Positions 3,075 through 22,136 of a stretch of DNA of 40,933 bases are shown one piece after another. The position numbers and the translations under genes were made by a program. Each line of letters begins with the position of its first letter. Position 1 is the stretch's first letter. The stretch is from a virus (lineage: Duplodnaviria > Caudoviricetes): IMG/VR virus record IMGVR_UViG_3300005805_000173, positions 1-40,933 of that record; one strand, 5' to 3'. Under the pieces are notes generated by a model, which did no database searches, had not been told where the DNA came from, and worked only from the letters and a program-made list of their open reading frames with translations.

Positions 3075-3081
3075 ATAGATT

Positions 3082-3111
3082 ATACTAGCATAAACCAGCA
3101 ACGGTTGTCAA
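3082..3111 (-). promoter_or_regulatory. sigma70 promoter, leaderless
   Basis: TTGACA-18 nt-TAGTAT with TGc extension; ATG 7 nt downstream. Confidence 0.6.
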
Positions 3112-3123
3112 TCCTGGCTGATT

Positions 3124-3447
3124 TTATGACCACCTCAGTCGAAACCAGGTAGCATCAGTCTCCCGAACAAAATAAAAGGTTCGATTATCCCAAAGCCAGT
3201 CTTCACCAATACTGCTATTGGTATCAGCAAACACAGCAAACACGTCCAGAGGGTAATCCAGGGTCACCATGATGAAAAGATGCTGATTTTCTGTGAACAA
3301 ACGAAATACCCCACCAGGGTGAGGGGGCACATCAAGAATTTCGGCTATGCGTCGAGATCTGCGGTCAATCATGGTCTGGAACTCCGAAACAGACATCGTA
3401 GACAATGGATCTGTTCGTTGCATGTAGGACAAAGCATTATTGGTCAA
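3124..3447 (-). CDS. hypothetical protein, dispersed member of the 'FxLRW' family with N-terminal extension
   Basis: C-terminus WLWDNRTFYFVRETDATWFRLRWS matches the array family at 18158-21205. Confidence 0.7.
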   Translation of the reverse strand: MTNNALSYMQRTDPLSTMSVSEFQTMIDRRSRRIAEILDVPPHPGGVFRLFTENQHLFIMVTLDYPLDVFAVFADTNSSIGEDWLWDNRTFYFVRETDATWFRLRWS

Positions 3448-3721: not shown

Positions 3722-3727
3722 ATACTG

Positions 3728-3756
3728 ACTCTAGCACAGAATCGATTGGTAGTCGA
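3728..3756 (-). promoter_or_regulatory. sigma70-like promoter, leaderless
   Basis: TCGACT-17 nt-TAGAGT with TGc extension; ATG 6 nt downstream. Confidence 0.5.
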
Positions 3757-3757
3757 A

Positions 3758-4375
3758 CTAAAAATCAACCAAAATGATATGCTCTGCGTGACGTTTGAAC
3801 AAGGGTTTGAACAACACATTGGGCATCACCTGAAAATTCTGGCAACCAGCATCAAAGCAAAATTTGGCCAGCTGTTTGAAGTAGACTGCTCGGCGTTGCA
3901 CAGTGCCCACATGAGTCACATGAACCGGCTGCTGGGTCAGATGCTCAATTAAGTAGCTGTCGTGACTCCAGCCCTGGCGGTCATCCACTGATGGTCTGGC
4001 ATTTTCAGTGATGATCAAACTATGAGCATCGGTGTTGATGGCAAAATTCATATTGAGATCATAACGACTGGTATTTTTGAAGTCTCTGACTGTGATTATC
4101 AGTCGACTTTTCACTGTGTTTACCACCTGTTCTATCAGTGCCTGCTGATCCTGCTGGTCAGCATAGGTAAAGTATTCATCAGTGGCCAGCACCGTGTGAT
4201 ACTTCTGGTTCAGATCCAGCGCCGGATAGCTGAGCCAACAACTCAGAGTCTGAGCCACGTCAGTGGTCTGAATCTGGTTGAGGATAAATTCATAGCGTTT
4301 GGCCACTATGTTAGGGTCAACGTAAGTGGCCAAACGGTTATGTAAAAGGGTTAGATATTCAGATGAAAACACCAT
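3758..4375 (-). CDS. hypothetical protein, possibly degenerate class I SAM-methyltransferase fold
   Basis: 205 aa ORF with SD AAGGAG; KYHTVLATDEYFTY...RLIITVRDF resembles the post-motif-I part of Rossmann MTases but no GxG motif. Confidence 0.4.
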   Translation of the reverse strand: MVFSSEYLTLLHNRLATYVDPNIVAKRYEFILNQIQTTDVAQTLSCWLSYPALDLNQKYHTVLATDEYFTYADQQDQQALIEQVVNTVKSRLIITVRDFKNTSRYDLNMNFAINTDAHSLIITENARPSVDDRQGWSHDSYLIEHLTQQPVHVTHVGTVQRRAVYFKQLAKFCFDAGCQNFQVMPNVLFKPLFKRHAEHIILVDF

Positions 4376-4401
4376 CAGCTCCTTATAAACTATAAGGATA
4401 T

Positions 4402-6363
4402 TTATGGATTTGTGGTGTTTTCTTCCTGATGGTTGTTTTTGGCTGTCTTGATCCTGACAATCATGCTGACATAATACTGTGCCAGAACACCAGTGTTGCG
4501 TAGCTCCTTGCAGAGTTTTATGGCCGAATCAAACTTGTGAGCATAATAAAACTCCAGCATACGGTTGTGTTGATCTGCAATGGTCAAATACTGGGTCTGA
4601 TCCAGCACAGTGAACACTTTGATTGCTTCGCTGTTTTCTGTTTTCACAGTGTCCAGTTCCACACACTGGAACTCTTCCTTGACCTGAGCAGCCGTGTGTT
4701 CGCCCAGTATCATGTTTACACTGTACAGTTTGCATAGGTTTTCCAGCTGGTCAGCAGTTTTCACTGCATCACCCATGGCAGTATAGTTGAACTTGCGTCG
4801 ACTGCCAGTGTTGCCTACCACTGCGGTGCCAGTGTTGATACCAATATCCAAGCATAATGGTACTTCCTCAGGAGCCAGGGATTCATTGAATTTTTCCACC
4901 TGTCTGAGCATTTCCTGAGCACTACGCACAGCATGAATGGCATGCCGATCCAGATCCAGCGGTGCGTTCCAGAATGCCACTACACCATCGCCAATCAGCT
5001 TGTCCACTGTGCCGCTGTTGCGAGTCACTGAGGGTAACATCTGATCCATATACCCATGTATCAGGCGCACCAGGCCTTCGCTATTGGCTTTATAACTGGA
5101 AACAATGGCTGAAAAGTCTCTGAGGTCAGCGTAGAGCACTGTGAGTTCCTTGAGTTCTCCGTCGGTTTTCACAGCTTTGGGATCCTGCTTGAGCCGGCGC
5201 AGCACTGCTGACCCTACGCTGTCACCAAACTTTCTGGTGATGCTCCACTCTGAACTGCGTTTGCGAGCCAGGTGATAGTAGAAAGTCAGCGCAAACACAC
5301 TGGTACTGCTCAGCGTGGGCCAAACCCAATCCACTGCCAGCGAACTGGTGTTGAACAGCATCCAGGCACCGATGATCACCACACCCATGCCGCCAGCATA
5401 GACCGGAATACAGGCATAGGGCGTATTGGCTTTGGCTGCTTTCAGGATGCTGGTGATGATCAGCACACTGATCAGCATTTCCAACATGTCAGCCCAGGGC
5501 GGTGTCACAATGGTGTTGCGGGTAAACAGACTCTGAATAAACTGTGCCTGCACATGATGATTACGCTTGGCTCCCAGCGGAGTCTGGACCCAGTTGTTGA
5601 CCTGCTGAGTGGCCACACCCACCACCACAATCTTGTTTTTCACAGCAGTCAGGTCAGATCCAGTGGCGTTGATGGTATCGAACTCCTGGTCGAACCTTAC
5701 TCGCCAGCGATTCTGGTTGTTTACCACCCAGGGTTTCAGGCCAGTCAGGTTGACTGAATGAGTTTGATTCTGATGCTGAATTCGTGCTCGGGCGTCACCA
5801 GTCAGTGTACGCAAAGCCTCTACTCCCAGACTGTAGTACACACGATCATCGTTGAGCATCACCAGATCCATGCGTCTGACCACACCGTCAGCATCAGCCA
5901 CAGTGTTTGCAAACCCCACTGCGGCGGCTGCCTGACTCAGTGTGTCTACCGGATTGGCCACCTGATCTTCAGCCACACTGCGAGCCAGCACCACACCGTT
6001 ATTCTGTATGGCTGCGGCAAAAACCGGGTCAGTTTTGGCCAGATCTGGATCTTTAAACACATCCACAAACACAATTACACCAGCGCCAGCGGTTCTGAGT
6101 CGAGTGACCAGATCAGCCAGATGGCTTTTGGGCCAGGGCCATTGCCCCTGTTTCTGCGCATCTGCATCGGTAATTTCCACAATCACCACATCAGTTGCTG
6201 AGTTATGTGGGGCCACCCATTGCATCAGATCGCTGCCCCATAATGCTAATCGTTCGGTAATGTCATGTTGGCCGTATCGCAAGTAAAGCAACGCCAGACT
6301 AAGCATGGTCACAAACACTGCAAAGCGAAAACGGTACCATAAATCCCAGAGTTTAGTCTTCAT
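4402..6363 (-). CDS. CHASE2-domain membrane class III adenylate/guanylate cyclase-like protein
   Basis: N-terminal TM, CHASE2 signature GQWPWP and DADGVVRR, three TMs, cyclase motifs VLYADLRDFS, VDKLIGDGVVAFWNAP, IGINTG, YTAMGDAV. Confidence 0.92.
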   Translation of the reverse strand: MKTKLWDLWYRFRFAVFVTMLSLALLYLRYGQHDITERLALWGSDLMQWVAPHNSATDVVIVEITDADAQKQGQWPWPKSHLADLVTRLRTAGAGVIVFVDVFKDPDLAKTDPVFAAAIQNNGVVLARSVAEDQVANPVDTLSQAAAAVGFANTVADADGVVRRMDLVMLNDDRVYYSLGVEALRTLTGDARARIQHQNQTHSVNLTGLKPWVVNNQNRWRVRFDQEFDTINATGSDLTAVKNKIVVVGVATQQVNNWVQTPLGAKRNHHVQAQFIQSLFTRNTIVTPPWADMLEMLISVLIITSILKAAKANTPYACIPVYAGGMGVVIIGAWMLFNTSSLAVDWVWPTLSSTSVFALTFYYHLARKRSSEWSITRKFGDSVGSAVLRRLKQDPKAVKTDGELKELTVLYADLRDFSAIVSSYKANSEGLVRLIHGYMDQMLPSVTRNSGTVDKLIGDGVVAFWNAPLDLDRHAIHAVRSAQEMLRQVEKFNESLAPEEVPLCLDIGINTGTAVVGNTGSRRKFNYTAMGDAVKTADQLENLCKLYSVNMILGEHTAAQVKEEFQCVELDTVKTENSEAIKVFTVLDQTQYLTIADQHNRMLEFYYAHKFDSAIKLCKELRNTGVLAQYYVSMIVRIKTAKNNHQEENTTNP

Positions 6364-6406
6364 ATTACTAGTTTAGCATACCTGAATGAAAGTTATAAAT
6401 ATTTCT

Positions 6407-7144
6407 ATGCCAAATCATAACTTGTTTGCTTTTGATTTAATCAGCGATTTGTATTTGGAACAATGGCCCAGCATCGATTGGAGCACCGAACCCACCAGCT
6501 TAATTGCTGTGGTGGCTGGTGATCTGAGCTCGGATCTGGATCATACTGTACACGAACTCAAAAAAATCAGCAAACATTATCGCCAGGTGTTGTATATTGA
6601 TGGTGATCTGGAACATCAGGATCAGCTATCTGAAGTGGATGGGAATCGTGCTTATCTGGCAAAGAAACTCAATAACACCAAAAACATCACATACATGCAC
6701 GAGCATGTGCTGATCATCAATCATGTGGCATTCATAGCAGCCAATCTGTGGTGGAGCCCAGGCGAAAGCACCACCAGTATCAATGACGATGGTTGGATGG
6801 AGGAAATGCAGATGCTGACTCTGCATCACGAAGATCTCAACTATATGCGATACACTGTGCAGCGTATTCAGGACTGCAAGGATATTCAGAAATGTGTGAT
6901 AGTCAGTCACACTGTGCCCAACCGTGAACTCATACTGGGTCCAGCCCATCAGAATCTGTTCAGTGATGCCAGTGACTGGGTAGAGATTGAAGATCACATG
7001 CACAAAATCAGCACCTGGTGTTTTGGTCACTGGAATCGCTCAGTGAAAACCACTGTAAACGATTGTCAGTATGTGAGTAATCCCAAAGGAAAACCCAGCG
7101 ATTCGCTGGGTTTACAATACCATCCTATGAGAGTTTTGGTTTAG
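6407..7144 (+). CDS. calcineurin-like metallophosphoesterase fold protein (degenerate motifs)
   Basis: ISDLYLE, VAGDL, YIDGDLEH, VSHTVP, WCFGHWN, YVSNPKG; start at 6407 just after TATAAATA (6394-6401), or 6386. Confidence 0.8.
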   Translation: MPNHNLFAFDLISDLYLEQWPSIDWSTEPTSLIAVVAGDLSSDLDHTVHELKKISKHYRQVLYIDGDLEHQDQLSEVDGNRAYLAKKLNNTKNITYMHEHVLIINHVAFIAANLWWSPGESTTSINDDGWMEEMQMLTLHHEDLNYMRYTVQRIQDCKDIQKCVIVSHTVPNRELILGPAHQNLFSDASDWVEIEDHMHKISTWCFGHWNRSVKTTVNDCQYVSNPKGKPSDSLGLQYHPMRVLV

Positions 7145-7452
7145 CTTTTGGGTTCCACCTTGACCACCAGGGGATAACCATGCAGGCGGGCCAGGGTCAA
7201 AACCTCAATGGTTTTCTGTTCGGCAATTTCGTAGGGCATTTCAGCAACCACACACTGCCCTTGTTCGTGAACCCTCTGAGCCAGATTGGTCGCTGAGTCA
7301 GCATCATAGTCAAAAACTTCCACCAAGCTGCTGATGACAAATTCAAAGCTGGTCACGTCGTCATTGACATAGATCACGCGGTACAGCGGAGGTTCGGCAA
7401 TCGCAGTATTGATGGCAATTTTGGTTTTTTCAATTAGATCTGTTTTAGGCAT
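7141..7452 (-). CDS. clpS: Clp protease adaptor ClpS
   Basis: PPLYRVIYVNDDVTSFEFV, VHEQG, YEIAEQK, GYPL motifs. Confidence 0.93.
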   Translation of the reverse strand: MPKTDLIEKTKIAINTAIAEPPLYRVIYVNDDVTSFEFVISSLVEVFDYDADSATNLAQRVHEQGQCVVAEMPYEIAEQKTIEVLTLARLHGYPLVVKVEPKS

Positions 7453-7473
7453 AGTTTTTGTCAGTGTGTGGAT

Positions 7474-7494
7474 GGGCGGGGAGGATCCCCGCCC
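7474..7494. other. GC-rich hairpin between hsp20 and clpS
   Basis: GGGCGGGGA-gga-TCCCCGCCC; no U-tract follows on the minus strand, so a stabilising or attenuating hairpin rather than a classic terminator. Confidence 0.6.
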
Positions 7495-7500
7495 GGGTGT

Positions 7501-7938
7501 TTAGGCAAAGTTGATAGCCACTGTACGAGGCTTCAACGCTTCGGGCAATTTGCGCTCCAGGTCAATGGTCATGATACCATTCTTCACTGTGGCGCTGACC
7601 ACTTCAACGTACTCAACCAGGCGCCATTCCCTCTGGAATTTGCGGCGGCTGAGCCCGCGGTGGACGTAGACAGTTTCTGCTTCGGGCTGATCCTGGATCT
7701 CACCAGTGACCGTCAACATACCATTGTTCACTGTGACTTCCAGGTCCTGCTCACCAAAACCAGCAACAGCAATTTCAATGCTGTAGTGGTCATCATCACG
7801 ACGGATGATGTTGTAGGGCGGGTAGCTGACTCTGGCAGGCGAAGCTGCATTCAGTGTATCAAACAGATGATCGAAACCAATCATCCAGCGGCCCAATTCG
7901 GGGCTCAAAGCAGTAGTAGTCATTGATAGATTACTCAT
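7501..7938 (-). CDS. small heat shock protein Hsp20 (IbpA-like)
   Basis: IGFDHLF, YPPYNI, IEIAVAGF, YVHRGLSRRKF, NGIMTIDL alpha-crystallin motifs. Confidence 0.95.
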   Translation of the reverse strand: MSNLSMTTTALSPELGRWMIGFDHLFDTLNAASPARVSYPPYNIIRRDDDHYSIEIAVAGFGEQDLEVTVNNGMLTVTGEIQDQPEAETVYVHRGLSRRKFQREWRLVEYVEVVSATVKNGIMTIDLERKLPEALKPRTVAINFA

Positions 7939-7941
7939 TGT

Positions 7942-7965
7942 AGTAACTCCTTTTTAAGCAAGTTA
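7942..7965 (-). promoter_or_regulatory. ROSE-like RNA thermometer over hsp20 RBS
   Basis: mRNA UAACUUGCUUAAAAAGGAGUUA: UUGCU motif pairs with AGGA SD with a bulged G; upstream hairpin 7973-8000. Confidence 0.6.
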
Positions 7966-8001
7966 TTTTTCTATGGGAGGCCTTGTTAAGCACCTCCCAT
8001 G

Positions 8002-8036
8002 TATTTATACTAACACGCCGCAAACGGCAAAATCAA
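8002..8036 (-). promoter_or_regulatory. overlapping T4-like late promoter (TATAAATA) and sigma70-like promoter for hsp20
   Basis: TATAAATA at 8002-8009; TTGATT-18 nt-TAGTAT with TG extension. Confidence 0.55.
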
Positions 8037-8042
8037 CAGTTT

Positions 8043-8288
8043 TTACTCGGACTTGTCGGCTTTGTTGTTCATATCTTCCATGCGAGCCCGCTTGCGCATA
8101 CGAGCCAGTGCCTGACCGCGGGCACGACGTCGTAACTCGCTGGGCTTCACATAGAATTCCTTCTTTTTCAGATCCTGCAGAACCCCTTCGTTCTGCATCT
8201 TCTTCTTGAGCTTGCGCAGAGCACGCTCAAGATCACCATTCTGGACTTCCACCACAATGCCTTGTGGGATGCCATTCTTGTCTCTCAT
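8043..8288 (-). CDS. rpsU: ribosomal protein bS21
   Basis: VEVQNGDLERALRKLKKK...LKKKEFYVKPSELRRR, the bS21 signature. Confidence 0.9.
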   Translation of the reverse strand: MRDKNGIPQGIVVEVQNGDLERALRKLKKKMQNEGVLQDLKKKEFYVKPSELRRRARGQALARMRKRARMEDMNNKADKSE

Positions 8289-9526
8289 TTTGCTTTTATC
8301 ACCTTGGTTGATTTAGACTGCTTATAATACATGACAGGATCGGCATCACTGGCAAACACTTCAGCAGTGAATTGGATCCTGTCAATCTTTTGTTGTTTGT
8401 ATCTGGGAATTGCAAACAGATGTGGTATCAGTTTGTATTCCAGTATGCTACGCAGCGCACGAGCACCGGTTTTCATACCAATGGCTTGCTGAGCAACATA
8501 ATCCAACGCATCGGCAGTGAATTCAATGCCGATGCCATCAGTTTCAAAATAAAATCTGTACTGCTCTATCAGATTGTGTTTGGTATTGGTTAGTACCTCT
8601 ACCAGATCCTGAACACTCAGTGCCTGAGTATGCACTGTGACTGGGAATCTGCCCACAAATTCTGGTATCATGCCAAACTTGATCAGATCTTCATTGGTTG
8701 CACCTGAGGTGTCGGTTTTGATTTCCACAGTCTTATCAAACCCAATGCGATTCTCACGATGGCGGCGGTTTACAATTTCCTGCAAGCCCACAAAAGCGCC
8801 ACTGGCTATGAACAGTATACCGCCAGTGTCAATATCCACTGTGCTGTTGCCCGGATGCTTCTTGCCGTTTTCAGCCGGCACTGTGACCACAGCACCTTCC
8901 ACCAGCTTGAGCAGAGCCTGTTGCACACCTTCACCACTGATATCACGATTGGCGCTGGAATGCTCGTTTTTCTTGCCAATCTTGTCCACCTCATCCAGAA
9001 ACACTATGCCACGTTGTGTGCGTTCCACATTGCCGTCGGCTGCTGCTAGCAATCGGCTGATTACTGATTCTACGTCTTCGCCCACATAACCAGTTTCAGT
9101 CAGGCTGGTTGCATCGGCTATCACAAAAGGCACATCCAGGAACTCTGCGATAGTTTTAGCTAACAGTGTTTTACCGCTGCCTGTGGGTCCCAACATCAAA
9201 ATGTTACTCTTTTCAATCCTGACTGCTGAACTGTAGAACAATCTCTTGTAGTGATTGGCTACTCCCACACTCAGCGTCATTTTGGCAGCTTCCTGACCAA
9301 TCACATGCTGGTCCAGATACTGTTTGATTTTCATGGGATTGGTATGTTTGACGGCTCGCTTGCTTTTTTTGATCTCGGCATTTTGTTGCTCAGTGAGCAG
9401 ATTTTTGCATTTGATCACGCACTCATCACATATAGCATGTGAACCACCTATGATCAGCTTGTTGACTTCGTTGCGGGATTTATCACAGAAGCCACAAAAG
9501 TTTGGGATGGACGAGTCTTTGTTCAT
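8285..9526 (-). CDS. clpX: Clp protease ATP-binding subunit ClpX
   Basis: C4 zinc finger CGFC..ICDEC, Walker A GPTGSGKT, GYVGEDVE pore loop, Walker B FLDEVDK, IGF loop, GARALR; start 9526 or 9541. Confidence 0.97.
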   Translation of the reverse strand: MNKDSSIPNFCGFCDKSRNEVNKLIIGGSHAICDECVIKCKNLLTEQQNAEIKKSKRAVKHTNPMKIKQYLDQHVIGQEAAKMTLSVGVANHYKRLFYSSAVRIEKSNILMLGPTGSGKTLLAKTIAEFLDVPFVIADATSLTETGYVGEDVESVISRLLAAADGNVERTQRGIVFLDEVDKIGKKNEHSSANRDISGEGVQQALLKLVEGAVVTVPAENGKKHPGNSTVDIDTGGILFIASGAFVGLQEIVNRRHRENRIGFDKTVEIKTDTSGATNEDLIKFGMIPEFVGRFPVTVHTQALSVQDLVEVLTNTKHNLIEQYRFYFETDGIGIEFTADALDYVAQQAIGMKTGARALRSILEYKLIPHLFAIPRYKQQKIDRIQFTAEVFASDADPVMYYKQSKSTKVIKAK

Positions 9527-9557
9527 GCTGTTATTTAACATAATCCATCAGGTTATT

Positions 9558-10217
9558 TCATTTTCCCAACACATTTTCCTTTTTCAGATACTTTTTGACC
9601 TGACTGAGTTGCTGGGTGTTTAGATCATCCATTTCAATGATACCGTTGACCAGCTGTTCTATCAGTTGTTCCACACTGAGATCTTCATTGTAAACCACCC
9701 AGTTTTTGCCATTGTAGCGATACATAGTGTTGGGAGTCATATCCACTCGCAGAAACTGATCACCAGTTTTGGGTTTGGTTGGAAATGCGGTGCCAAACCG
9801 GGTACTAACTGGGGCATCATTGATCAGGATGTCAGATTCTGATATCAATGCTTCCAGCTTCTGGATCAACGGATTGTCTGTGTATACAATCTTTTCCACT
9901 TCCACAATTCGCTCTGGTCCAGGAATTTCTTTGATAACCTCAACTTCTTTGATGACGTCAACTGGTACCTCTTTGATGATTTCTACCGGTACTTCCCTGA
10001 TGACTTCCACTTCTACTGGTACTTCCCTGATGACTTCTATTTCTTTGATGACTTCAACTGGTACCTCTTTGATGATCTCTACAGGTACTTCCCTAATAAC
10101 TTCCACTTCTACTGGTACCTCTTTGATAACTTCAACTGGTACCTCTTTGATAACTTCTATAGTTTGCGGAGCAGCTGACTCAGGCGATTCCGCCAAGTGG
10201 TCTGCTCCGGTTGCACA
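9558..10217 (-). CDS. C-terminal extension (EVPVEVIKE repeats + globular tail), probably reached by -1 frameshift from upstream ORF
   Basis: Open -1 frame through the slippery site; the first usable start codon is an upstream TTG buried in a hairpin; ~70 aa of VPV/VIKE repeats. Confidence 0.65.
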   Translation of the reverse strand, partial: CATGADHLAESPESAAPQTIEVIKEVPVEVIKEVPVEVEVIREVPVEIIKEVPVEVIKEIEVIREVPVEVEVIREVPVEIIKEVPVDVIKEVEVIKEIPGPERIVEVEKIVYTDNPLIQKLEALISESDILINDAPVSTRFGTAFPTKPKTGDQFLRVDMTPNTMYRYNGKNWVVYNEDLSVEQLIEQLVNGIIEMDDLNTQQLSQVKKYLKKENVLGK

Positions 10218-11017
10218 AAAGGGACAGGTTCCTGGCTGACCTCCTGGGTGATTTCAACTTCTTGCTCATCCAGTTCCAGTTTGCGATTTACTGCCAACAT
10301 CAATGCCAAAGCCAGGGGGTCAAACACAGCAACCAACACTATGATTACCCAGCGAACAGCACTCTCCAGTACATCAGCGCCAGCCTGGTCACCATAGATC
10401 AGTGCAGCAATATATTTGACTGGTCCCACTTCGGCTTCCACCTGCCTGACTTTTGCTGCAATAGGTGCTCGCTGAGCTTGTAGATCCTGGATACGACGTT
10501 GAGCTAGTTCGTTGTCCTTCTGCAATTTGGATCGTTCAGCTGATTGACTGCGACGTATTTGCACTGCTCGTTCAGCACCACGTTCATCCCGACTGCGACC
10601 CAATATCTCAGTGACACTGTTGTCCATCTGAGTTAACACCAGTTTGTTGGCAGCAATGTTGTCACGTTCGGTTTTGATTTTTTCATCAATCAGAGCAACC
10701 TCAGCCTGCACGTCAGCAGTAGGCACTGCCTGATCCAGGTGAGCTTTGCTTAGAAATCCAAAAATACCCATACTAGTGATCAGCATCAACACCACCATGC
10801 TGATCACCAGATAAATTTTCATTATGGCACCCACACGGGCCCAATTTTTTCTCAACCAGATAGTGGTTACAACTTTGCCCACTTCCAATGCGGTGCCCAT
10901 GATAATAATGGGCACCTTGGCAGCGGCAAATATTGCAGTTAAACCACTTACACTGTAAAAAGCACTTACTGAACTAATCAACAGTGCAATCAATAAAGCT
11001 GCATAATCAAGCATCAT
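10157..11017 (-). CDS. multi-TM membrane protein with coiled-coil region
   Basis: Three N-terminal TMs, long coiled coil, fourth TM (WVIIVLVAVFDPLAL); start 11017 follows stop of previous gene at 11022. Confidence 0.8.
   Translation of the reverse strand: MMLDYAALLIALLISSVSAFYSVSGLTAIFAAAKVPIIIMGTALEVGKVVTTIWLRKNWARVGAIMKIYLVISMVVLMLITSMGIFGFLSKAHLDQAVPTADVQAEVALIDEKIKTERDNIAANKLVLTQMDNSVTEILGRSRDERGAERAVQIRRSQSAERSKLQKDNELAQRRIQDLQAQRAPIAAKVRQVEAEVGPVKYIAALIYGDQAGADVLESAVRWVIIVLVAVFDPLALALMLAVNRKLELDEQEVEITQEVSQEPVPFVQPEQTTWRNRLSQLLRKL
10167..10223 (-). other. candidate programmed -1 ribosomal frameshift signal
   Basis: In-frame C_CCU_UUU heptamer (10223-10217), 7-nt spacer, stem-loop CGGAGCAG...CUGCUCCG with inner GGCG/CGCC stem. 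Confidence 0.65.
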
Positions 11018-11021
11018 AGTT

Positions 11022-14000
11022 TTAATAGGGGTCAAACAGGATCATGTGATCGTTGTGTTTGGTCGTTGCGCTCCAATTTATACTTCCGGTACTGTAGGTT
11101 ATTGTATAAGTGGTGGTTTTGTAGTATTCATTACTGTCAGTAGTGCCTCTGATTGCAACAGTATCACCATTATTAATTGTGGTACTGGTTCCCACATTGC
11201 TTCCATTTTTAAATATCACTGCTGTAGCATCACCATTGTCATTGGTTAGTGTAATGGTTATGGGCAAGTCAAAATCACTGGCTGTTAGAGTATTGCTGGT
11301 TACTACTTCTGATAGTTGACGATCTCGGACATCAATAAAGTCTCCTGGAGTCCATACAACACCAGTTCTGGCAGCTCGAGTAACGTATCTAAAAGTATCA
11401 GATACTACCGAGGGACCTGCAATCAGTGTAACTGTAAATATTCTGACAGAACTATATGCACCAGAACTAGTGGCCCGAATAGCAACACTTTGTCCTGGTA
11501 CCACCACAGTGGTGGATAATCCTGTATCTACACCATTAAGCACTATGGTTGCACTGTTATCCACAGTTAGGGTAGCACTACTCCCTTCAAAACTCAATGC
11601 TATGGTATTGGTGTTTATGGTCTGATTTATTTCTAAACCAGTACGATCTTCAAAATCCGGTGTAATTAATACTGGTGGTCTGGTAGCTAAAGTAAAGCTA
11701 TCAACTACTCCTGTTCCCAGCGTTACTCGATAAGTGTGTGTGGTAAAAAATGTTGATGGAGATGTAAGGCGGCATTTGATTTTATTGCCTAAGTATACAA
11801 AACTACTGTATCCAGTCAGTACATATCCTGCTCCAGAATCTATCAATAAATTTCCAGCAGGTCCATATGTTCCATTGACCAATTGCTCCAGTTTAACTGG
11901 AACTCCTGCACAACTGGAGATGCCACTTACTGTTATATCATTGGTTTCAACTGTGGTGCTGACTTCCAGACCCGATTGATTTGCAAAATCAAAAGCATCA
12001 GCAACTATGTCATTGGCAGCAACTCTGACAGTAAATGTGTCTTCTACTACATCATATCCGCCACCAGGACCATCTGGAAACCCTGGTGGAGAACATCTGG
12101 CACGGAACCTGACAACAGTCTGAGCGCCATTATTGCCACAAGGAGTACGAATGATAGGAGTTATAATGTCACCAGGCAATACTCCCACTCGAAGTGAATT
12201 GGGAGTATGGGGCAGAGTGCTGGGTATCAAAAATGTAGAGGTAGTAGCTCCACGAGTTCTTCGCATGCCTACCACATACAGATTATCATAATACTGTGGA
12301 GAGGTTGGTGATCCAGGAGGATCTAGAAACCAATTATCAGCAAACAGCGCCATGTTCCATTCACCCAAAAACGATCCAGTAACGGCGGATGCTGAGGCAT
12401 CTAGTTGTGTATCTGCTGCCTGTAATCCCAAATCTGGAAAGGAAAAACTGGGTGATACTATAATTGGACCAGTATTAACTGTGATGCTTACCTGTCCAAA
12501 GTTGCTAACACCATTGGGTCCCTCTACCTGATAAGTAACTGCATCACCACCACTGAAGTTAGCTGGAGGTGTATACCGATATTCCAGCGGGTTGGATGTG
12601 CCGGCTGATACAAAGGTGCCACCAGCAGCACGAGTGGGGCTGACATATTTTACTCGTGTAAAGGTACCACTGGTCACCACCAAAGTCACTGGATTATTTG
12701 AGCTGTTTTTGTCAACTGTGATGGCAAAACTGCTGACAACTGGCGGAGGTGGTGGAGGAGGTGGCGGAGCAGGACTGGGCGTAACCCTGATGATTATCTG
12801 GCCAAATTGGCTGGTGCCGTGAGGACCACGAACCGAATAGGTAACAGAATCACCACCCACATAACCAGCAAGCGGTGTATAGTAATACTGTAATGGATTG
12901 CTGGTGCCAGCAAGCACAAAGGTACTGCCAACAACATAGGTGGGGCTGATAGAATTCACCACAGTGTAGTCACCAGTGACTGGCAATGTTACCAGATTGT
13001 TGGTGCTGTTTTCCACCACTGAAATGGTTAAATCTCCAGCAATGGGTGCTGCGCCAGGTTCACCAGGTGGCGGGGGTGGTGGTTCTGGTTGATCTGGGTT
13101 TCTAGAAGCTCTGTCAAAATTCACCAGGAATATACACACAGTCTGACCCTGAGCGTTAACTGAGCTGCTTATGGGAGTCACACTGTTGACTTTATAATAA
13201 GTCGCAGGTGGATAACCGTATTGTATTGGATTGGCTGTGGTGATTTCACCAAACTGAGTGATGTTGGAAACCTGCGCTGACAGATTGGTTTCCAGAGTAT
13301 ATTGACCTGGACTGGATCCATAGCTTAGACCACTGGGTATGCCAGTGTCCTGATAGGCCAACGGAGCACAATTGGTGACTGGTGTGACTGGTGGGGGTGG
13401 CGAAGTTACCTGAGCAGGACCTGGAGGTGTTCCACCAGGCACTGGAGTATCCAGTGGTATCCATCCGATTGGAAATCCTAAATTTTGATAATATCGAGGA
13501 GTTCCGCTGGCATCATATGCTAATATGACAGCACCCACTGCATAGTCAAAACTATTATAGTCACCTATGAATCTGGGAGCAGGCGCTGGACCAGTGGGAT
13601 TGGCCGGAGCAATAGGCCCAGTAATATCCGAAGGACCAGTAGGCGAAGACGGAGGTGTCGTAATCTCAGTCCATCCAAACTGTGTTGACTGATAGAACCT
13701 CACTACGCCGTCAGCACCAGTGGCTGTGACCACTGTGCCCACTGGTAAACTTTGAGTATCATAATAGCTCAACGGCGGTGGAGCACTGCTGGTGGGTTGC
13801 GGCGGTGCAACCACTGGTGCAGGCTGAACTGGTGCAGGCGGAGGCTGATAGGTATTGGGATCTTCAGTGGGCCCAATTGGGTCTATAGGTACTACATTTC
13901 CGCCACCATCAATAATTTGCCCATCTACGCCAGACCCCACTGGTTCAATCACTGGTTCAATCACTGGTTCCACTATGATCTCTATGGGCTCTTCAGGTGG

Positions 14001-16789: not shown

Positions 16790-18106
16790 TTAGATTTTCT
16801 CCCCAGCCGCAAATCCGCGCCAGCGTTCAAACCGCGGAAACCGCATGCTATAGCTTCCGTCCTGATTCTGCGTGACAGCGTCAGCTTTGACTTCCACAAC
16901 CTGTCCAATCACCTGGCTTCGGGCCGCCCAAATTTGATCGCGATCAGCGTCAGTAAAACCAGAGCCAGTGTTAACACAAATTGTCTTTCCGTCATGCTCT
17001 CCTTCACAAACCAATGCACCCAACCGTCCTGCGTTCTTGCCGGTACCCTCTTCCACAGCCACCACAGTGAGGTCCACAGTGATAAACGGTTTGAGCTTGA
17101 GCCAATGGGTGCTACGCTTGCACTCATAGCCAGCGTCCACGTCCTTCAACATGATTCCTTCGTACCCGCCATCAATGGCTTGACGATTGATTGAATTGAA
17201 CTGCTGACGACCCACTTCAGTGTCCAGGTCCACAGTACACCCATCCAGGATCTTGACGTTGGGCAGCACAGATTCAAACTCTGCATACCAAGCCTTCAAT
17301 ACCTGGCTTCTGACCTGCTGCGGAGTGTCTGAACGACCTGCACGAAACTCCTCCAAGCTCAGGTTGTCGAACAGGTACAGCACTGCATCCTGGCTCTGCA
17401 CATTGCTCTTGCGATGCACCTGCCGCATCAGATCCTGGAAGCTGGCGCTCATCACTTCACCATCAAATACCCAAGCATGTTCCATGCTCTGGGCCATCTG
17501 CTGCATCTGCGTTACAATGTGGGGGAAGTTCTGAAGCTCTTTACCATTGCGAGTAAACATGTTCACTCTGCCGTCTGGATACACAATGGTAATCACCCGG
17601 ACACCATCCAGCTTGACTTCCAGTTGCTTGCGGCCTCGCACCTTGCCCTCGTGATTCAGGCTGTCGTGGGCCAGCTGGCATTCAAACACCGGAATGGCAT
17701 ACAAGGGGCGATTGGTCTTCTTGACCACCGTGTTCACTGTCTTTTCGGTGACGCCGCAACGCAGGTCACGGATCAGGATACGCCGATACCAGCAGTTCCA
17801 TTGTTCCTGGGTGGCCTGCATCATCAGCTGATTCACAGCATCGCGAGCAGCATTGCCCGTGAGCTTGCGATTAGTCAGCTGCTGAACCACATTGCTGAAA
17901 GCAGTCCAGCTCAGCCCAACACCATCAGTACCAGCATGCTCCGGCACCTGCTTGATGCCAAAAGTTTCAAAATTGTCCAGCGCCATGCGCAACCCGGCAA
18001 ACAGTTCACCATTGCCAGCACGGGATTCAGCAGCAATCACGCCTTCTTTGAACAAGCGGCTATTGTTGCTTTCCAGCTTCTGTATCACGCTCCACGGTGT
18101 GTTCAT
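16790..18106 (-). CDS. ATP-dependent DNA ligase
   Basis: Adenylation motif EVKLDGVR, FDGEV, EGIMLK, WLKLKP, OB-fold GSGFTD, RFPRF. Confidence 0.95.
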   Translation of the reverse strand: MNTPWSVIQKLESNNSRLFKEGVIAAESRAGNGELFAGLRMALDNFETFGIKQVPEHAGTDGVGLSWTAFSNVVQQLTNRKLTGNAARDAVNQLMMQATQEQWNCWYRRILIRDLRCGVTEKTVNTVVKKTNRPLYAIPVFECQLAHDSLNHEGKVRGRKQLEVKLDGVRVITIVYPDGRVNMFTRNGKELQNFPHIVTQMQQMAQSMEHAWVFDGEVMSASFQDLMRQVHRKSNVQSQDAVLYLFDNLSLEEFRAGRSDTPQQVRSQVLKAWYAEFESVLPNVKILDGCTVDLDTEVGRQQFNSINRQAIDGGYEGIMLKDVDAGYECKRSTHWLKLKPFITVDLTVVAVEEGTGKNAGRLGALVCEGEHDGKTICVNTGSGFTDADRDQIWAARSQVIGQVVEVKADAVTQNQDGSYSMRFPRFERWRGFAAGEKI

Positions 18107-18112
18107 ATTCTT

Positions 18113-18141
18113 AGTATAGCATTGTGCTGTTGGGATGTCAA
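18113..18141 (-). promoter_or_regulatory. sigma70 promoter, leaderless ligase mRNA
   Basis: TTGACA-17 nt-TATACT with TGc extension; ATG 6 nt downstream. Confidence 0.8.
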
Positions 18142-18157
18142 CCTCTGAGGGAAACTT

Positions 18158-18367
18158 TCAACACCATCTCAACATGAACATGGTCAGATCCTGCTCACGT
18201 TGGAAGCATAGATTGCATTGATTGTCAAGTGCCCACGAATCGTAACCAAACTGCTCATTACACCAAAACAGTGCATTTTGATCAATGGGAACTCTGACTT
18301 CGCGGCCAGTGGCGTCAACACCAAGTCTGTTGTGTCGGACAGAAACTTTGAATGGATAAGGGTCCAT
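18158..18367 (-). CDS. FxLRW-family small protein
   Basis: WCNEQFG..W...CFQREQDLTMFMLRWC. Confidence 0.8.
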   Translation of the reverse strand: MDPYPFKVSVRHNRLGVDATGREVRVPIDQNALFWCNEQFGYDSWALDNQCNLCFQREQDLTMFMLRWC

Positions 18368-18374
18368 ATGTGTT

Positions 18375-18404
18375 ATTATAGCACTCTGAATTGAGCGTTG
18401 TCAA
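18375..18404 (-). promoter_or_regulatory. sigma70 promoter, leaderless
   Basis: TTGACA-18 nt-TATAAT with TGc extension; ATG 7 nt downstream. Confidence 0.8.
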
Positions 18405-18721
18405 GTCTTCAACGTGAGCCAAACCATGTGTTTTTCCAGCTGAGCAACCACTTGATCCATGGTTGGGTTGTCAGGAACGAAGTAGGCTTGATTGAATTTT
18501 TTGCGTCTTTCTGCCCGAAAACGGTACGGATTCATCCATCCTCGAATTTGATGCTGAACAGATCCGCCCACAGTGCCCCACAGGATTATAGAACCTGTGT
18601 TAGACATGCTTCCGAAGATTATGTCTTTCTCAAAAATGTTGGCTTGAGCCCAAAACAGCAGTTTTTCTTTTGAGCCTTGCCGAGATGGCCGAACTAAAAT
18701 GCTGTAATAATCCACTTGCAT
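18401..18721 (-). CDS. hypothetical protein (possibly WGR-like)
   Basis: 106 aa; IILWGTVGG...KKFNQAY loosely resembles WGR domains; SD GGAG. Confidence 0.5.
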   Translation of the reverse strand: MQVDYYSILVRPSRQGSKEKLLFWAQANIFEKDIIFGSMSNTGSIILWGTVGGSVQHQIRGWMNPYRFRAERRKKFNQAYFVPDNPTMDQVVAQLEKHMVWLTLKT

Positions 18722-18760
18722 GATGCTAGCTCCACATCAATATAAACATCACGGTATTTT

Positions 18761-18994
18761 TCAATAAACATCCATATCCTCTTCTTCTGTACAGTCGCCC
18801 CACCTCAACTTGAAAAATATCAGGTCTTGTTTGTCTCTGAAGAAAACGTCGGGCCATCCCCAATTCCAGCGTTCTCGGTCAGTGTCATCAAAATTGGCTT
18901 TACACCAGTGGATAATTTCAAACCACTGATCAAACTCAAAGGCGTTGCAAACGGCTTTGTACCGATACCGTATATAACCATTAGGAATTTCCAT
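18761..18994 (-). CDS. FxLRW-family small protein
   Basis: WCKANF..RWNWGWPDVFFRDKQDLIFFKLRW + acidic tail; start MEIPNG at 18994. Confidence 0.8.
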   Translation of the reverse strand: MEIPNGYIRYRYKAVCNAFEFDQWFEIIHWCKANFDDTDRERWNWGWPDVFFRDKQDLIFFKLRWGDCTEEEDMDVY

Positions 18995-19214
18995 AGTCAA
19001 TCCACTTCAATTGAAACCACATCAGATCTTGTTCGTCTCTGAAAAGAAAATTGGGCCACGACCAAGCCCAACGTTGCCATTCTTCACCATATGTTTGAAC
19101 GGCCCAGACATTCATTTCTTTCCATTGATCAAAGTCGGCGTCGGCACACCTGAATTTATATTGATAAGATATATATCCCGCTGGTGTTTCTACTTTGAAC
19201 CTTTTCTTTGCCAT
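18981..19214 (-). CDS. FxLRW-family small protein
   Basis: RWAWSWPNFLFRDEQDLMWFQLKW. Confidence 0.8.
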   Translation of the reverse strand: MAKKRFKVETPAGYISYQYKFRCADADFDQWKEMNVWAVQTYGEEWQRWAWSWPNFLFRDEQDLMWFQLKWIDYGNS

Positions 19215-19215
19215 G

Positions 19216-19437
19216 CTAAGACCACCTCAATTGAAAAAACAGTAGGTCTTGTTCATTATTGAAATAAATTTCAAGCCATCCTTTAGCCCATCGTGCTCTG
19301 TCATCGCCAAAATTATCGTTGCACCAACGAACTATGTCAAACCATTGGTTCATGTCAACATTGCTTTTGTTGACGCGATGAGAATAGGTCCGGTATCCTT
19401 CTGGCGTATGAATTTTAAACCGTGTTTTAGGTGTCAT
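19216..19437 (-). CDS. FxLRW-family small protein
   Basis: WCNDNFG..RW...YFNNEQDLLFFQLRWS. Confidence 0.8.
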   Translation of the reverse strand: MTPKTRFKIHTPEGYRTYSHRVNKSNVDMNQWFDIVRWCNDNFGDDRARWAKGWLEIYFNNEQDLLFFQLRWS

Positions 19438-19624
19438 GCTCAGACCACTTCAATTGAAACCACATCAGATCTTGTTCATGAACGAATACCAGCAATGGAT
19501 AATCCCAGCCCCAGCGGCGGCCCACTTTTTCAGAACCAAAATGCTCTCTGCACCAGTCAATCATTTCAACAAAATCATCCATTTTACAGCCAGAGTGAAC
19601 AGAAATGTAATACTGTTCTATCAT
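19427..19624 (-). CDS. FxLRW-family small protein
   Basis: WCREHFG..RWGWDYP..FVHEQDLMWFQLKW. Confidence 0.8.
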   Translation of the reverse strand: MIEQYYISVHSGCKMDDFVEMIDWCREHFGSEKVGRRWGWDYPLLVFVHEQDLMWFQLKWSEHDT

Positions 19625-19625
19625 A

Positions 19626-19838
19626 TCACTGCCACCTCAACACAAAAAACACAGCATCCTCAGAATGCTTGAACAGAAATCCTCTGATAACAAAACACCA
19701 AGTGTTCTGGGCATATTGATGATCGCACCAATTTGCCATGGACATAGCCAAGTCTTCATCAAACATAGATTGGTAGTCCAACTTGACAAAGTAGGGATAT
19801 TCAGGATGAAAATCAGGATTTGATGCCTCAAGTACCAT
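19626..19838 (-). CDS. FxLRW-family small protein
   Basis: YPY...WCDHQY...FLFKHSEDAVFFVLRWQ; start MVLEAS at 19838. Confidence 0.8.
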   Translation of the reverse strand: MVLEASNPDFHPEYPYFVKLDYQSMFDEDLAMSMANWCDHQYAQNTWCFVIRGFLFKHSEDAVFFVLRWQ

Positions 19839-20037
19839 ACTCTTCCCAGAACAAAACAAAAAATGTAACGTGTTCGGCTAGTTTGAAACGAACGCCTTCG
19901 GGATCCCAGTACCAATTGTGAACACCAAACTGCTCATCGCACCAGGAAAACATTGCAACCCGCGTCTCCCAGCCAGATTTATATCGCTTGCTAACAGCCA
20001 GATATGGATAAGTTTTTAGAACTTGCTCGGAAGCCAC
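19828..20037 (-). CDS. FxLRW-family small protein
   Basis: YPY...WCDEQFGVHNWYW...RFKLAEHVTFFVLFW; GTG start overlapping upstream TAG. Confidence 0.75.
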   Translation of the reverse strand: MASEQVLKTYPYLAVSKRYKSGWETRVAMFSWCDEQFGVHNWYWDPEGVRFKLAEHVTFFVLFWEEYGT

Positions 20038-20198
20038 TAGAGCCACCTCAATCGGAACATGGTAGCGTCGGCTTCTGATTCAAACCAAACCGTTTCATGA
20101 TAAGGATTCAGTGACCAGCGTCCAGTAGCGAACTGTTTACACCAATCATTCATTTCTACATAAACTCTAAACGGTGCTAGCGGCAGATTCATTTTCAT
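20037..20198 (-). CDS. FxLRW-family small protein (53 aa, not in ORF track)
   Basis: Hand-translated MKMNLPLAPFRVYVEMNDWCKQFATGRWSLNPYHETVWFESEADATMFRLRWL. Confidence 0.8.
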   Translation of the reverse strand: MKMNLPLAPFRVYVEMNDWCKQFATGRWSLNPYHETVWFESEADATMFRLRWL

Positions 20199-20199
20199 A

Positions 20200-20382
20200 C
20201 TATTGCCACCTCAACATAAACAGTATAGCATCTTTTTCGTGTCTGAAACGAATTGATTCAGCGCCGTATAACCAATTGTCAGTGTTTTCGAAAGTTTCCA
20301 CACACCAATCGTATCGTTTGGCTCGCTCGTTCCATGAACTTGCGCCGGTAGGAAGTTCTACTTTGTAAGGGAAAGTGAACAT
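20200..20382 (-). CDS. FxLRW-family small protein
   Basis: RYDWCVETFENTDNWLYGA..RFRHEKDAILFMLRWQ. Confidence 0.8.
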   Translation of the reverse strand: MFTFPYKVELPTGASSWNERAKRYDWCVETFENTDNWLYGAESIRFRHEKDAILFMLRWQ

Positions 20383-20565
20383 TTATAACCACCTCAGCGA
20401 GTACAGCACTGCGTCTTTTTCATGTTTGAAATAAAAACAAGTGGCGCCGTACATCCAATTGTCAAAATTCCCAAACGTTGCCACACACCAGTCATATCTT
20501 TTAGACCAGCTTTCAGTCAGTGGAACACTCACATGATATGGATATTTTTCGGCTAAACTGGGCAT
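20383..20565 (-). CDS. FxLRW-family small protein
   Basis: RYDWCVATFGNFDNWMYGA..YFKHEKDAVLYSLRWL; close paralog of neighbour 20200-20382. Confidence 0.8.
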   Translation of the reverse strand: MPSLAEKYPYHVSVPLTESWSKRYDWCVATFGNFDNWMYGATCFYFKHEKDAVLYSLRWL

Positions 20566-20566
20566 A

Positions 20567-20791
20567 CTAGGACCACCTTAGATGGAACAGCACAGCATCT
20601 TGCTCAGAGGTAAACCAAAATTGATCCACATTTGGTTCTACTCGACAGTTCACACTCGAGTACCATTTGTCTTTAAGGGTTTGCTTACACCAATTTTCCA
20701 CTTCTTCGAGTTTAGAACAAAGGAGAAGTTTGTCAAACTGAACATTAAATTCATACGGAGGAAATTTGTTGTATGCTTTTAGCACTAACAT
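20567..20791 (-). CDS. FxLRW-family small protein
   Basis: WCKQTL..KW...FWFTSEQDAVLFHLRWS; ATG overlaps upstream TGA. Confidence 0.8.
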   Translation of the reverse strand: MLVLKAYNKFPPYEFNVQFDKLLLCSKLEEVENWCKQTLKDKWYSSVNCRVEPNVDQFWFTSEQDAVLFHLRWS

Positions 20792-20970
20792 CAGGACCAC
20801 CTTAGCCCAAACATCATTGCATCTGTCTCCGATTCAAATCTGAAAACATGACAGCCACCGACCACAGCACACCCAAACAAATCTATTGCGTTTTGTTCAC
20901 ACCAGTCCAGAATTTCATCAGCTTCGGTCAATGCCAACGAACGCCCCATATTGATTTTGTGTGGATACAT
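20791..20970 (-). CDS. FxLRW-family small protein (59 aa, not in ORF track)
   Basis: Hand-translated MYPHKINMGRSLALTEADEILDWCEQNAIDLFGCAVVGGCHVFRFESETDAMMFGLRWS. Confidence 0.8.
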   Translation of the reverse strand: MYPHKINMGRSLALTEADEILDWCEQNAIDLFGCAVVGGCHVFRFESETDAMMFGLRWS

Positions 20971-20971
20971 G

Positions 20972-21205
20972 CTAGCACCATCTCAGCTTGAACATTACGA
21001 GATCAGCTTCTTTCCTGAAGTAAATCTCCTTTGTGATTATCGCCATGGTCCAACTGCCGGGTTCCAGATGCTCGTCACACCATGCAGCCAAACGGTTGAA
21101 ATGCTCGATGTGTTCATGCACCAGGCTATTTCGATCAAATCGTATGCCCACGCTATAAGGATACTCTGCAGAGTGTACAGGTTTGAACGTAATGCATTCA
21201 GGCAT
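20972..21205 (-). CDS. FxLRW-family small protein
   Basis: YPY...WCDEHL..GSW...YFRKEADLVMFKLRWC. Confidence 0.8.
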   Translation of the reverse strand: MPECITFKPVHSAEYPYSVGIRFDRNSLVHEHIEHFNRLAAWCDEHLEPGSWTMAIITKEIYFRKEADLVMFKLRWC

Positions 21206-21214
21206 AGTGAACCT

Positions 21215-21697
21215 TTAGCGATAGAGTTCGTGCATAAACGCCCGACGTTCCTGTTCAGCTTCCTGCTCCGCATAGGCTGCCTTGTAAACACACCGGCAAG
21301 TGGGCAGTTCTTCACCGCAGCATTCGCAGTCTGCAAACCGCTTCTGTACCGGAGCAGGCTTGGCCGGCACTGCTTTGGCAGCAGCATCTTCCTCGATGAT
21401 CCGGAGAATCTGCCCGGCATACTTGCAGATAGCCGGCTGATCGCGCCAAGGACGCCACACCATTTTGAGCTGCTTTTCGCTCAGAGGCTTGTTGGGAAAT
21501 TTGATCACAAATTCCGCCAAGCGGCTGAACCAAAGAGCATCTGCAGGCTGGAAGCCACGCAGGTTGTGATTGCGAGTCTGGTGGGAAGCCTGTTCGTCCT
21601 GGGTTTGGCGCTGGTACAAACGCACCAGCGCACGACGCACCCAACGTTCGTCAGTAGCCAACTTGTGGCGGATGAAGTCTTCGGTGTAGCGTTCCAT
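21215..21697 (-). CDS. hypothetical phage protein with C-terminal Cys cluster
   Basis: Start MERYTEDF at 21697 just downstream of promoter; RALVRLYQRQTQDEQ..GF..DA motif; CECC..CRC. Confidence 0.7.
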   Translation of the reverse strand: MERYTEDFIRHKLATDERWVRRALVRLYQRQTQDEQASHQTRNHNLRGFQPADALWFSRLAEFVIKFPNKPLSEKQLKMVWRPWRDQPAICKYAGQILRIIEEDAAAKAVPAKPAPVQKRFADCECCGEELPTCRCVYKAAYAEQEAEQERRAFMHELYR

Positions 21698-21706: not shown

Positions 21707-21735
21707 AGTATAGCAAATGGTGTGCAGGGTGTCAA
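21707..21735 (-). promoter_or_regulatory. sigma70 early promoter heading the FxLRW array operon
   Basis: TTGACA-17 nt-TATACT with TGc extension. Confidence 0.8.
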
Positions 21736-22061: not shown

Positions 22062-22136
22062 TGGAGCCGGAGGAGGGATTTGAACCCTCAACCCCCTGAT
22101 TACAAATCAGGTGCTCTGCCGTTGAGCTACCCCGGC
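22062..22136 (-). tRNA. tRNA-Thr (UGU)
   Basis: GCCGGGGTAGCTCAACGGCAGAGCACCTGATTTGTAATCAGGGGGTTGAGGGTTCAAATCCCTCCTCCGGCTCCA: cloverleaf, anticodon stem CCTGA/TCAGG around TGT, GTTCAAATC T-loop, encoded CCA. Confidence 0.95.

Follow-up and report, generated by a model that had tools for sequence, protein, structure and literature searches.

A phage array of small paralogous genes with shared ends that may serve as ribosome-binding and crossover sites

Small accessory genes that are shuffled at shared short sequences are found in integron arrays, where the cassettes have intergenic attC sites, and in the promoter-stem-loop cassettes of T4-type phages; diversity-generating retroelements have a template/variable repeat pair of about 100 nucleotides (nt). 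The subject of the present study is an array of thirteen small paralogous genes, referred to as cassettes, located at 18158-21205 on the minus strand of IMG/VR virus record IMGVR_UViG_3300005805_000173. The entire 40,933-nt record, designated the window, comes from a large uncultured tailed phage, of whose genome it is a 41-kb fragment. In contrast to the integron and T4-type cassettes, the shared sequence in this array lies within the coding end, there is no intergenic recombination site and all of the cassettes are paralogues. An attC layout was not found, since twelve of the genes either overlap or are only a few bases apart, and the longest exact repeat within 18100-21260 was 33 nt, which does not correspond to a retroelement target, although a distant template could lie in the part of the genome outside the fragment. 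In the passages of PMC7824862 covered here, Bacillus phage G is described as having about 35 zinc ribbons, a lineage-specific expansion of a small domain in a jumbo phage. The window array is likewise a large-phage expansion of a single small, functionally uncharacterized domain whose many copies have diverged, but the fold is different, there is no metal-ligand motif, the gene end appears to be a coupling and crossover site and some members of the family carry capsid pieces. The present family was not mentioned in the searched passages of that paper. The open-access full-text literature gave no description, in the portions covered, of the family, of cassette ends that encode coupling or of capsid-piece decoys (PMC7824862, PMC11702601 and PMC12926258 were among the papers met). 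Paralogue expansions in large phages are already known; the cassette architecture and the capsid cargo appear to be new.

The sections of the literature covered here also describe several encounters between phage proteins and host sensors. Capsid proteins are known immune triggers (PMC9712102, PMC3014915). In the T4 Gol/Lit protease/EF-Tu system, Gol is located in the first quarter of gp23, the most conserved region of the protein, and binds EF-Tu (PMC3014915). A capsid piece fused to relatives of the window genes aligns to this same first quarter. However, Gol acts from within the capsid protein itself as a trigger of defence, whereas the fused piece has been copied onto a small separate carrier and does not occur in the window members. 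CapRel-SJ46 senses the major capsid protein directly (PMC9712102) and is the type of sensor that a capsid-piece decoy would address, although it represents the host side of the conflict and concerns another capsid family. DSAD1, a phage inhibitor that competes with the tail tube for the DSR2 sensor (PMC11087589), provides a precedent for a small phage protein that blocks the trigger site of a sensor; it is, however, one gene directed against one system rather than a shuffled array, and no sequence or fold link to the present family was found.

Gene ends and turnover of the array

The thirteen open reading frames (ORFs) that a sequence-only reading of the window had proposed as paralogues were all confirmed on the minus strand, encoding proteins of 53-77 amino acids (aa), including cassettes 2 and 6, which were missing from the ORF track (Table 1). 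Twelve abut or overlap between 21205 and 18761 and the last is separated from them by a non-member gene. The pattern that had been described was also found, with invariant columns W24, F47, L58 and W60 and nearly invariant C25, W38, D52 and F56. Pairwise identity among the array members was 18-59%, and in leave-one-out profiles each member scored 36-63 bits, compared to a maximum of 12.4 across 500 shuffles each. The profile located a fourteenth, dispersed member that had been missed. The impression that neighbours are the closest relatives held as well, adjacent genes being 35.1% identical vs 29.6% by chance (p=0.003 against random orders). In a poorly resolved tree from which the gene at 20383 was left out, 19427, 19216, 18981 and 18761 formed a clade with support of 96/81. 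Cassettes 3, 7 and 8 probably begin at 20791 (ATG), 20037 (GTG) and 19838 (ATG), respectively, and not at their longest-ORF starts.

The terminal L-R-W of the proteins is encoded by TTG-AGG-TGG, which contains GAGGTG, a sequence that can pair with the 16S anti-Shine-Dalgarno. In the window, AGG encoded the motif Arg in 9/11 cases, while this codon accounted for 6% in core genes and in long ORFs. A codon-neutral pattern scan yielded 369 non-redundant members; the terminal motif was present in 315 of them, with Arg in 268; the Arg codon was AGG in 176 of the 268, compared to 72/888 (8%) of the other Arg codons in the same genes (p 2e-79). The seed pattern required L-R-W, so that residue frequencies from this set are biased but the codon shares are not. 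The next ATG was no more than 14 nt away in 149/176 AGG cases vs 51/92 of those with other Arg codons, the commonest junction being GAGGTGG-NN-ATGA, an overlap that also fixes the length of the one-residue tail. Just over half of the coupled next genes (123/235) were themselves family members. Thus, the shared gene end is likely to be the Shine-Dalgarno sequence, or ribosome-binding site, of the next gene, and translational coupling between the cassettes is inferred from the codon bias and the spacing. There is a constraint on the protein as well: the motif position is Arg in 78% and Lys in 17% of the column profile, the Trp is kept, and the one-residue tail is retained in 62/80 uncoupled members.

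The same C-terminus had been compared, more speculatively, to the ClpX-docking tail of SspB, in which case the LRW tail would dock on the phage ClpX and deliver host proteins for degradation. The window does encode ClpP-, ClpX- and ClpS-like genes, SspB also has a C-terminal L-R pair, and the retention of the basic residue and of the one-residue tail in uncoupled members would be expected of such adaptors. Seven cultured genomes were checked both ways and, although kinship confounds the comparison, the three with the family have ClpX and the three without ClpX lack the family; SCTP-2, however, has ClpX yet gave no family match. The docking motif of SspB is an unstructured C-terminal tail, whereas in the AlphaFold2 model the motif is predicted to lie within the last helix, which extends from residue 50 to the final Trp at residue 60 with a predicted local distance difference test (pLDDT) score above 90 and leaves no free tail. 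Moreover, codon choice and tail length would both follow from the putative ribosome-binding site and the ATGA/TAATG overlap. Tail length varies from 0 to 12 aa across members; tails of 3-12 residues exist, 4/14 window members have longer ones, one tail was swapped in the related strain described below and many members in the Sinorhizobium phage Phosso end differently. The SspB substrate-binding fold was not among the best 50 matches listed by either structure search, where a lower-ranked match could still occur. Taken together, the model and the codon data make a ClpX-docking function very improbable, and are a reminder that constant C-terminal residues in arrays of this kind may have a role other than docking.

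Comparison with a close strain showed how the array changes. This strain, L004, which is 98% identical to the window in the ligase gene, has ten cassettes at the corresponding position. Cassettes 2, 3, 5, 10 and 11 are missing, cassette 4 is broken, cassette 6 has another leader (the variable N-terminal region) and two cassettes are extra relative to the window. The junctions are at the shared gene ends, and one crossover is located exactly in the 33-nt repeat at the ends of cassettes 9 and 11, so that cassette 9 in L004 has the tail of cassette 11. Not all junctions are at the motif, since a deletion scar in the window also contains a break in its interior, where only a few bases are shared. 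The scar consists of the start and the end of one gene, of which L004 has an intact copy (10694-10915), followed directly by the end of a second (10912-11124). Because the window keeps this remnant of the two extra L004 genes, both lines must have lost cassettes, from at least 15. The more distant L001-L003 (74% DNA identity) have one copy at the site. The shared 3' end is therefore likely, on the evidence of these junctions, to be the point of recombination between strains.

The shared copies gave a pooled ratio of nonsynonymous to synonymous change (pN/pS) of 0.36 (26 vs 17 changes in 472 codons, recombinant ends excluded), below neutral (p 0.001) and above the value of 0.10 for the ligase (p 0.02). 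The shared cassettes are under purifying but relaxed selection. One interpretation is that the array is a gene nursery, in which the module spreads because it folds well and brings a coupling signal with it, while the majority of copies contribute little and just a few of the captured leaders are of use. The relaxation relative to the ligase, the absence of five cassettes and the breakage of another in so close a strain, the loss of two in the line of the window and a copy number that ranges from 1 to 39 are all in accord with a nursery. Nevertheless, the purifying selection on the shared copies and the unchanged protein of cassette 13, which has its own perfect promoter, argue against it, as does the origin of the captured pieces discussed below, and this interpretation is considered rather unlikely.

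Fold and distribution of the family

None of the 14 window members matched Pfam or PHROGs, in agreement with the earlier statement that the family is uncharacterized, and scans of 113 aligned members against Pfam, PHROG, NCBIfam and PADLOC found no family common to more than one. A PDB sequence search gave best E values of 0.43 and 0.9. A search of 1.84 billion representatives, in contrast, yielded 3,226 relatives at E 0.001. The AlphaFold2 model is a beta-alpha-beta-beta-alpha domain (pLDDT 88), a ferredoxin-like arrangement with five of the six elements of the beta-alpha-beta-beta-alpha-beta topology of RRM and ferredoxin-like domains, the fourth strand being absent. The best match to a solved structure had a Z score of 6.1, with a root-mean-square deviation of 2.1-2.9 over 56-59 residues, but was tied among unrelated folds and is not specific. 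Foldseek against the PDB found nothing at E 0.001, while a structure search of viral models gave template modelling scores up to 0.77, the named matches all being uncharacterized phage proteins. The earlier proposal of a diversified family on a constant predicted fold is supported, and local duplication and strong copy-number variation accompany it.

The topology raised the possibility that the proteins are nucleic acid-binding regulators, with an RRM-like half-ferredoxin domain whose open sheet would contact RNA or DNA. It matches RRM, ACT and HMA folds with Z scores of 5-6 (Pes4 RRM4, 5.6), and a Methylobacterium member is joined to an apparent winged helix, recognized by eye and without a Pfam match. 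However, the best Z of 6.1 reflects a common arrangement. The RNP1 and RNP2 motifs of RRM domains present exposed aromatic residues, and these were not found in a 160-sequence column profile, where no aromatic or basic strand position was conserved and the best residue reached 28% or less at alternate positions, exposure being judged from alternation and not from coordinates. In addition, 11/14 window members have a net acidic charge and one is net basic. Nucleic acid binding is consequently regarded as quite improbable.

The nearest relatives of the DnaB-like helicase in the window are those of the Pseudomonas phages PA5oct and Paride (52%), followed by Agrobacterium phage Atu_ph07 and Phosso (48%). 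The family profile matched 39 proteins in Phosso, 6 in Atu_ph07 and 3 each in PA5oct and Paride; nothing was found in XaC1, or in the three more distant jumbo phages Vibrio phage 2.275.O, BF and SCTP-2, with a profile that may miss distant members. A tblastn search of cultured phages with cassette 11 gave no match, so these members were reached by the profile only. A complete 344-kb uncultured genome has 21 members, 17 of them in one cluster, and among 134 viral loci there were up to 12 members per 5 kb. No form longer than 152 aa was present among 3,328 candidates, which is weak evidence, and the long multi-repeat matches P0026, P0030, P0045 and P0074 were rejected by inspection as unrelated repeats. 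Five proteins (P0022, P0029, P0037, P0091 and P0136) have two domains in tandem; they may be real fusions that hint at pairing, or read-through calls.

A cellular family was also rejected, since the 77 cellular pattern matches were mostly a chance match in a Nitrospira membrane protein and about a dozen were members; 200 genomes from each of two proteobacterial orders gave no further match. The cellular members that were inspected adjoin resolvase, HTH or HNH genes in mobile-looking DNA. In the Methylobacterium gene (L272 805-1545) and in L200 1943-2548, the domain follows a region that by eye resembles a winged helix. This region in L200 has a weak MCM_C match, and the L272 gene is next to an integrase-like ORF.

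Capsid-protein pieces in relatives and the possible role of the array

In some relatives, the leader contains a piece of a capsid protein. When 75 viral members of at least 88 aa and 24 protein matches were scanned against Pfam, three passed the Gp23 cut-off on the leader alone. A profile was then constructed from six capsid proteins of this clade, with a threshold set at the 99.9th percentile of 5,100 shuffles; 17/255 leaders were above it (0.26 expected), at profile positions 55-104 and 161-214. Among 330 control small genes five matched, each of which has a family-like or truncated motif at its end. When the leaders were compared to 356 long proteins, the capsid protein alone gave matches below E 1e-7, while shuffles gave up to 3 matches at E 0.005 per round. 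The captured pieces are nearest to the capsid protein of the clade itself. The C-terminal domain of these fusions is the same as that of the window members.

Fusions of the first region had 734 homologues. In 108 of the best 120, the domain accompanies the capsid piece, and conservation of the core residues P, A, I, G, V, Q, P and M of the capsid protein is 96-100%. The piece aligns to T4 gp23 86-126 (probability 95%), a stretch that includes Gol (residues 94-122). In the model of a fusion, the domain is firm (pLDDT 88-96) and the leader loosely helical (46-58). One genome, G002, has a full capsid gene and a separate fusion 160 kb apart, and one fusion in Phosso carries a third, C-terminal piece of the capsid protein. 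The domain tree was too short for counting capture events. The overwhelming origin of the pieces from one of 356 long proteins, with core residues retained, is the observation that was cited above against a gene nursery.

The family domain is not the sole carrier of the capsid piece, because a Phosso gene (L359 1396-2076) has the N-terminal piece on an unrelated C-terminal part. Other sources contributed little: no polymerase piece was found in the 255 leaders, and four leaders had terminase pieces above threshold, two at Walker A, all weak. The leaders of L151 1546-1950, L179 1944-2276, L193 2805-3158 and L030 3884-4180 have short pieces resembling the terminase Walker A, a lysozyme/chitinase motif and a family-B polymerase motif; among these, only the terminase pieces pass the shuffle threshold, and weakly.

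The interpretation preferred here, with a probability of about one half, is that the array is a recombination-shuffled repertoire of small scaffolds, likely to be counter-defence binders or decoys. Each cassette would pass translation on to whatever gene comes next, and with this hand-over cassettes could be dropped, added or given a new leader without silencing the operon, recombination occurring at the shared ends. The domain would be a stable fold that carries a variable leader or loop. In the members with a capsid piece, the peptide would engage a sensor or other factor of the host but not trigger it, while the short-leader members of the window would bind other host proteins via their leaders, loops and open sheet face, with factors of host defence or of translation as the proposed targets. 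The idea of decoys comes from the relatives, because no window member has a capsid, terminase or polymerase piece. Accordingly, the counter-defence or host-takeover repertoire that had been suggested earlier gains indirect support from the capsid-piece fusions of relatives and none from the thirteen genes themselves.

Several observations weigh against this repertoire, 1) the window's 14 members do not match the capsid, terminase or polymerase profiles, all scoring below 0 bits against the capsid profile, so that a Gol-type leader is absent, 2) 238/255 leaders (about 93%) match no capsid piece, 3) no positive selection was seen, pN/pS being less than 1 in every orthologue pair, 4) a free capsid piece could set off a sensor instead of blocking it, and 5) the one metatranscriptome run with a trace of the family gave two short low-depth contigs, one of 189 nt at a depth of 2.8 that may be DNA, and these are no evidence of transcription. 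The five best neighbours of each window member are likewise capsid-free, save for one weak match of the dispersed member at 3124.

The capsid and terminase pieces could alternatively serve in conflict between phages or in assembly control, if the fused pieces and variable surfaces jam the head assembly of co-infecting relatives or tune that of the phage itself. The segments that were copied are those conserved most strongly among T4-type capsid proteins, as described in the portion of PMC3014915 covered here, and could affect many relatives; the weak Walker A pieces of terminase are also in keeping with this role. On the other hand, pieces nearest to the clade's own capsid protein would jam that as well, and the window members have no such piece. 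Internal virion proteins of the T4 IP type are carried in the particle; the PA5oct members gp247, gp274 and gp275 are absent from the virion electrospray ionization mass spectrometry table in the covered part of PMC7318152, a table that includes proteins of 8.6 and 9.1 kDa and bears only indirectly on the window phage. This absence is also in keeping with the repertoire preferred above. A role in assembly is judged unlikely.

A broader form of the repertoire hypothesis, which is tentative and rather doubtful, would make the domain the carrier shared by all cassettes of a system that operates without an integrase in large phages related to PA5oct and Atu_ph07. Its ends would combine the motif, ribosome-binding site and crossover point, captured capsid and perhaps terminase pieces would be displayed as decoys, and peptide-free members would bind other host sensors, the whole constituting a phage-side combinatorial mimic library against pattern-recognition immunity. 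In that case, abundant large phages would have thousands of as yet unannotated genes that together form one shuffled toolkit against host immunity, and the carried peptides would reveal what bacterial sensors and host factors recognize on capsid proteins. The dual-coded gene end would also explain how a dense paralogue array is reshuffled without an integrase. The family is accessible to experiment now, since the cultured phages listed above contain it.

Promoters, neighbouring genes and coordinates

Sigma70-type promoters of the window are located at 21735, 18404 and 18141, the first being the operon-head promoter that had been predicted. The sequence-only reading had also called the operon early, for which the sigma70-type promoter was the sole ground. 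In the covered part of PMC7318152, PA5oct is reported to depend on the host RNA polymerase throughout infection and to have sigma70-type promoters 5' of both ClpP and the family member gp274, so that such promoters do not prove early timing; per-gene timing was not found in the portion of the PA5oct supplement spreadsheet that was covered. Three consensus -10 boxes (18367, 18106 and 21697, minus strand) end just 6-9 nt before the ATG, with no space for a ribosome-binding site, and for this reason the genes at these positions are likely to make leaderless mRNAs. Leaderless-type promoters may be a clue to the host group.

Table 1. Coordinates of the array and associated features in the window.
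Feature	Position	Strand	Evidence or remark
Operon-head sigma70-type promoter, TTGACA-17-TATACT, extended -10	21707..21735	-	11/12 matches
First operon gene, non-member, phrog_21015 (unknown function)	21215..21697	-	E 1e-16
Cassette 1, 77 aa; L004 orthologue differs chiefly in loops	20972..21205	-	ORF + profile
Cassette 2, 59 aa; missing in L004	20791..20970	-	ORF + profile
Cassette 3, 74 aa from ATG 20791; missing in L004	20567..20791	-	ORF + profile
Cassette 4, 60 aa; L004 copy frameshifted, with stop	20383..20565	-	profile
Cassette 5, 60 aa; missing in L004	20200..20382	-	profile
Cassette 6, 53 aa; other leader in L004 copy	20037..20198	-	profile
Cassette 7, ~69 aa; likely GTG start 20037	19828..20037	-	profile
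Cassette 8, 70 aa from ATG 19838	19626..19838	-	profile
Cassette 9, 65 aa; folded model beta-alpha-beta-beta-alpha, pLDDT 88	19427..19624	-	profile + AlphaFold2
First copy of the exact 33-nt repeat, at the cassette 9 end; L004 crossover site	19445..19477	-	
Cassette 10, 73 aa; missing in L004	19216..19437	-	profile
Cassette 11, 77 aa; tail alone remains in L004	18981..19214	-	profile
Second copy of the exact 33-nt repeat, at the cassette 11 end	19002..19034	-	
Cassette 12, 77 aa from ATG 18994	18761..18994	-	ORF + profile
Deletion scar, remnants of two genes of L004	18722..18776	-	
Non-member gene, 106 aa, no family	18401..18721	-	family scans
Sigma70-type promoter of cassette 13	18375..18404	-	12/12 matches; 7 nt 5' of ATG; likely leaderless mRNA
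Cassette 13, 69 aa; L004 protein identical	18158..18367	-	profile
14th member, long leader without known kin; likely ATG start 3423	3124..3447	-	E 3e-8; no leader match

Elsewhere in the window, the region 655-9541 encodes ClpP-, ClpS-, Hsp20- and ClpX-like proteins together with UV-endonuclease-like and metallophosphoesterase-like ones, all except ClpX identified by eye. PA5oct has a similar Clp cluster, in which the family members gp274 and gp275 adjoin ClpP. A 653-aa membrane protein (4402-6363, minus strand) resembles, by eye, a CHASE2 sensor joined to an adenylate/guanylate cyclase, and the ORFs at 9558-10196 (minus strand) and 1342-1779 (plus strand) encode proteins with short Glu/Val/Pro-rich peptide repeats.

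Two further features of L004 involve ORFs identified by eye. The orthologue of the first operon gene is interrupted, from the opposite strand, by a GIY-YIG-like ORF (8230-9003, minus strand). An insertion of 1.35 kb contains a 403-aa nuclease-like ORF (6355-7566, minus strand), and its ends map to window positions 22112 and 22085, inside a tRNA-Thr gene (22062-22136). This insertion is possibly an intron with a homing endonuclease.

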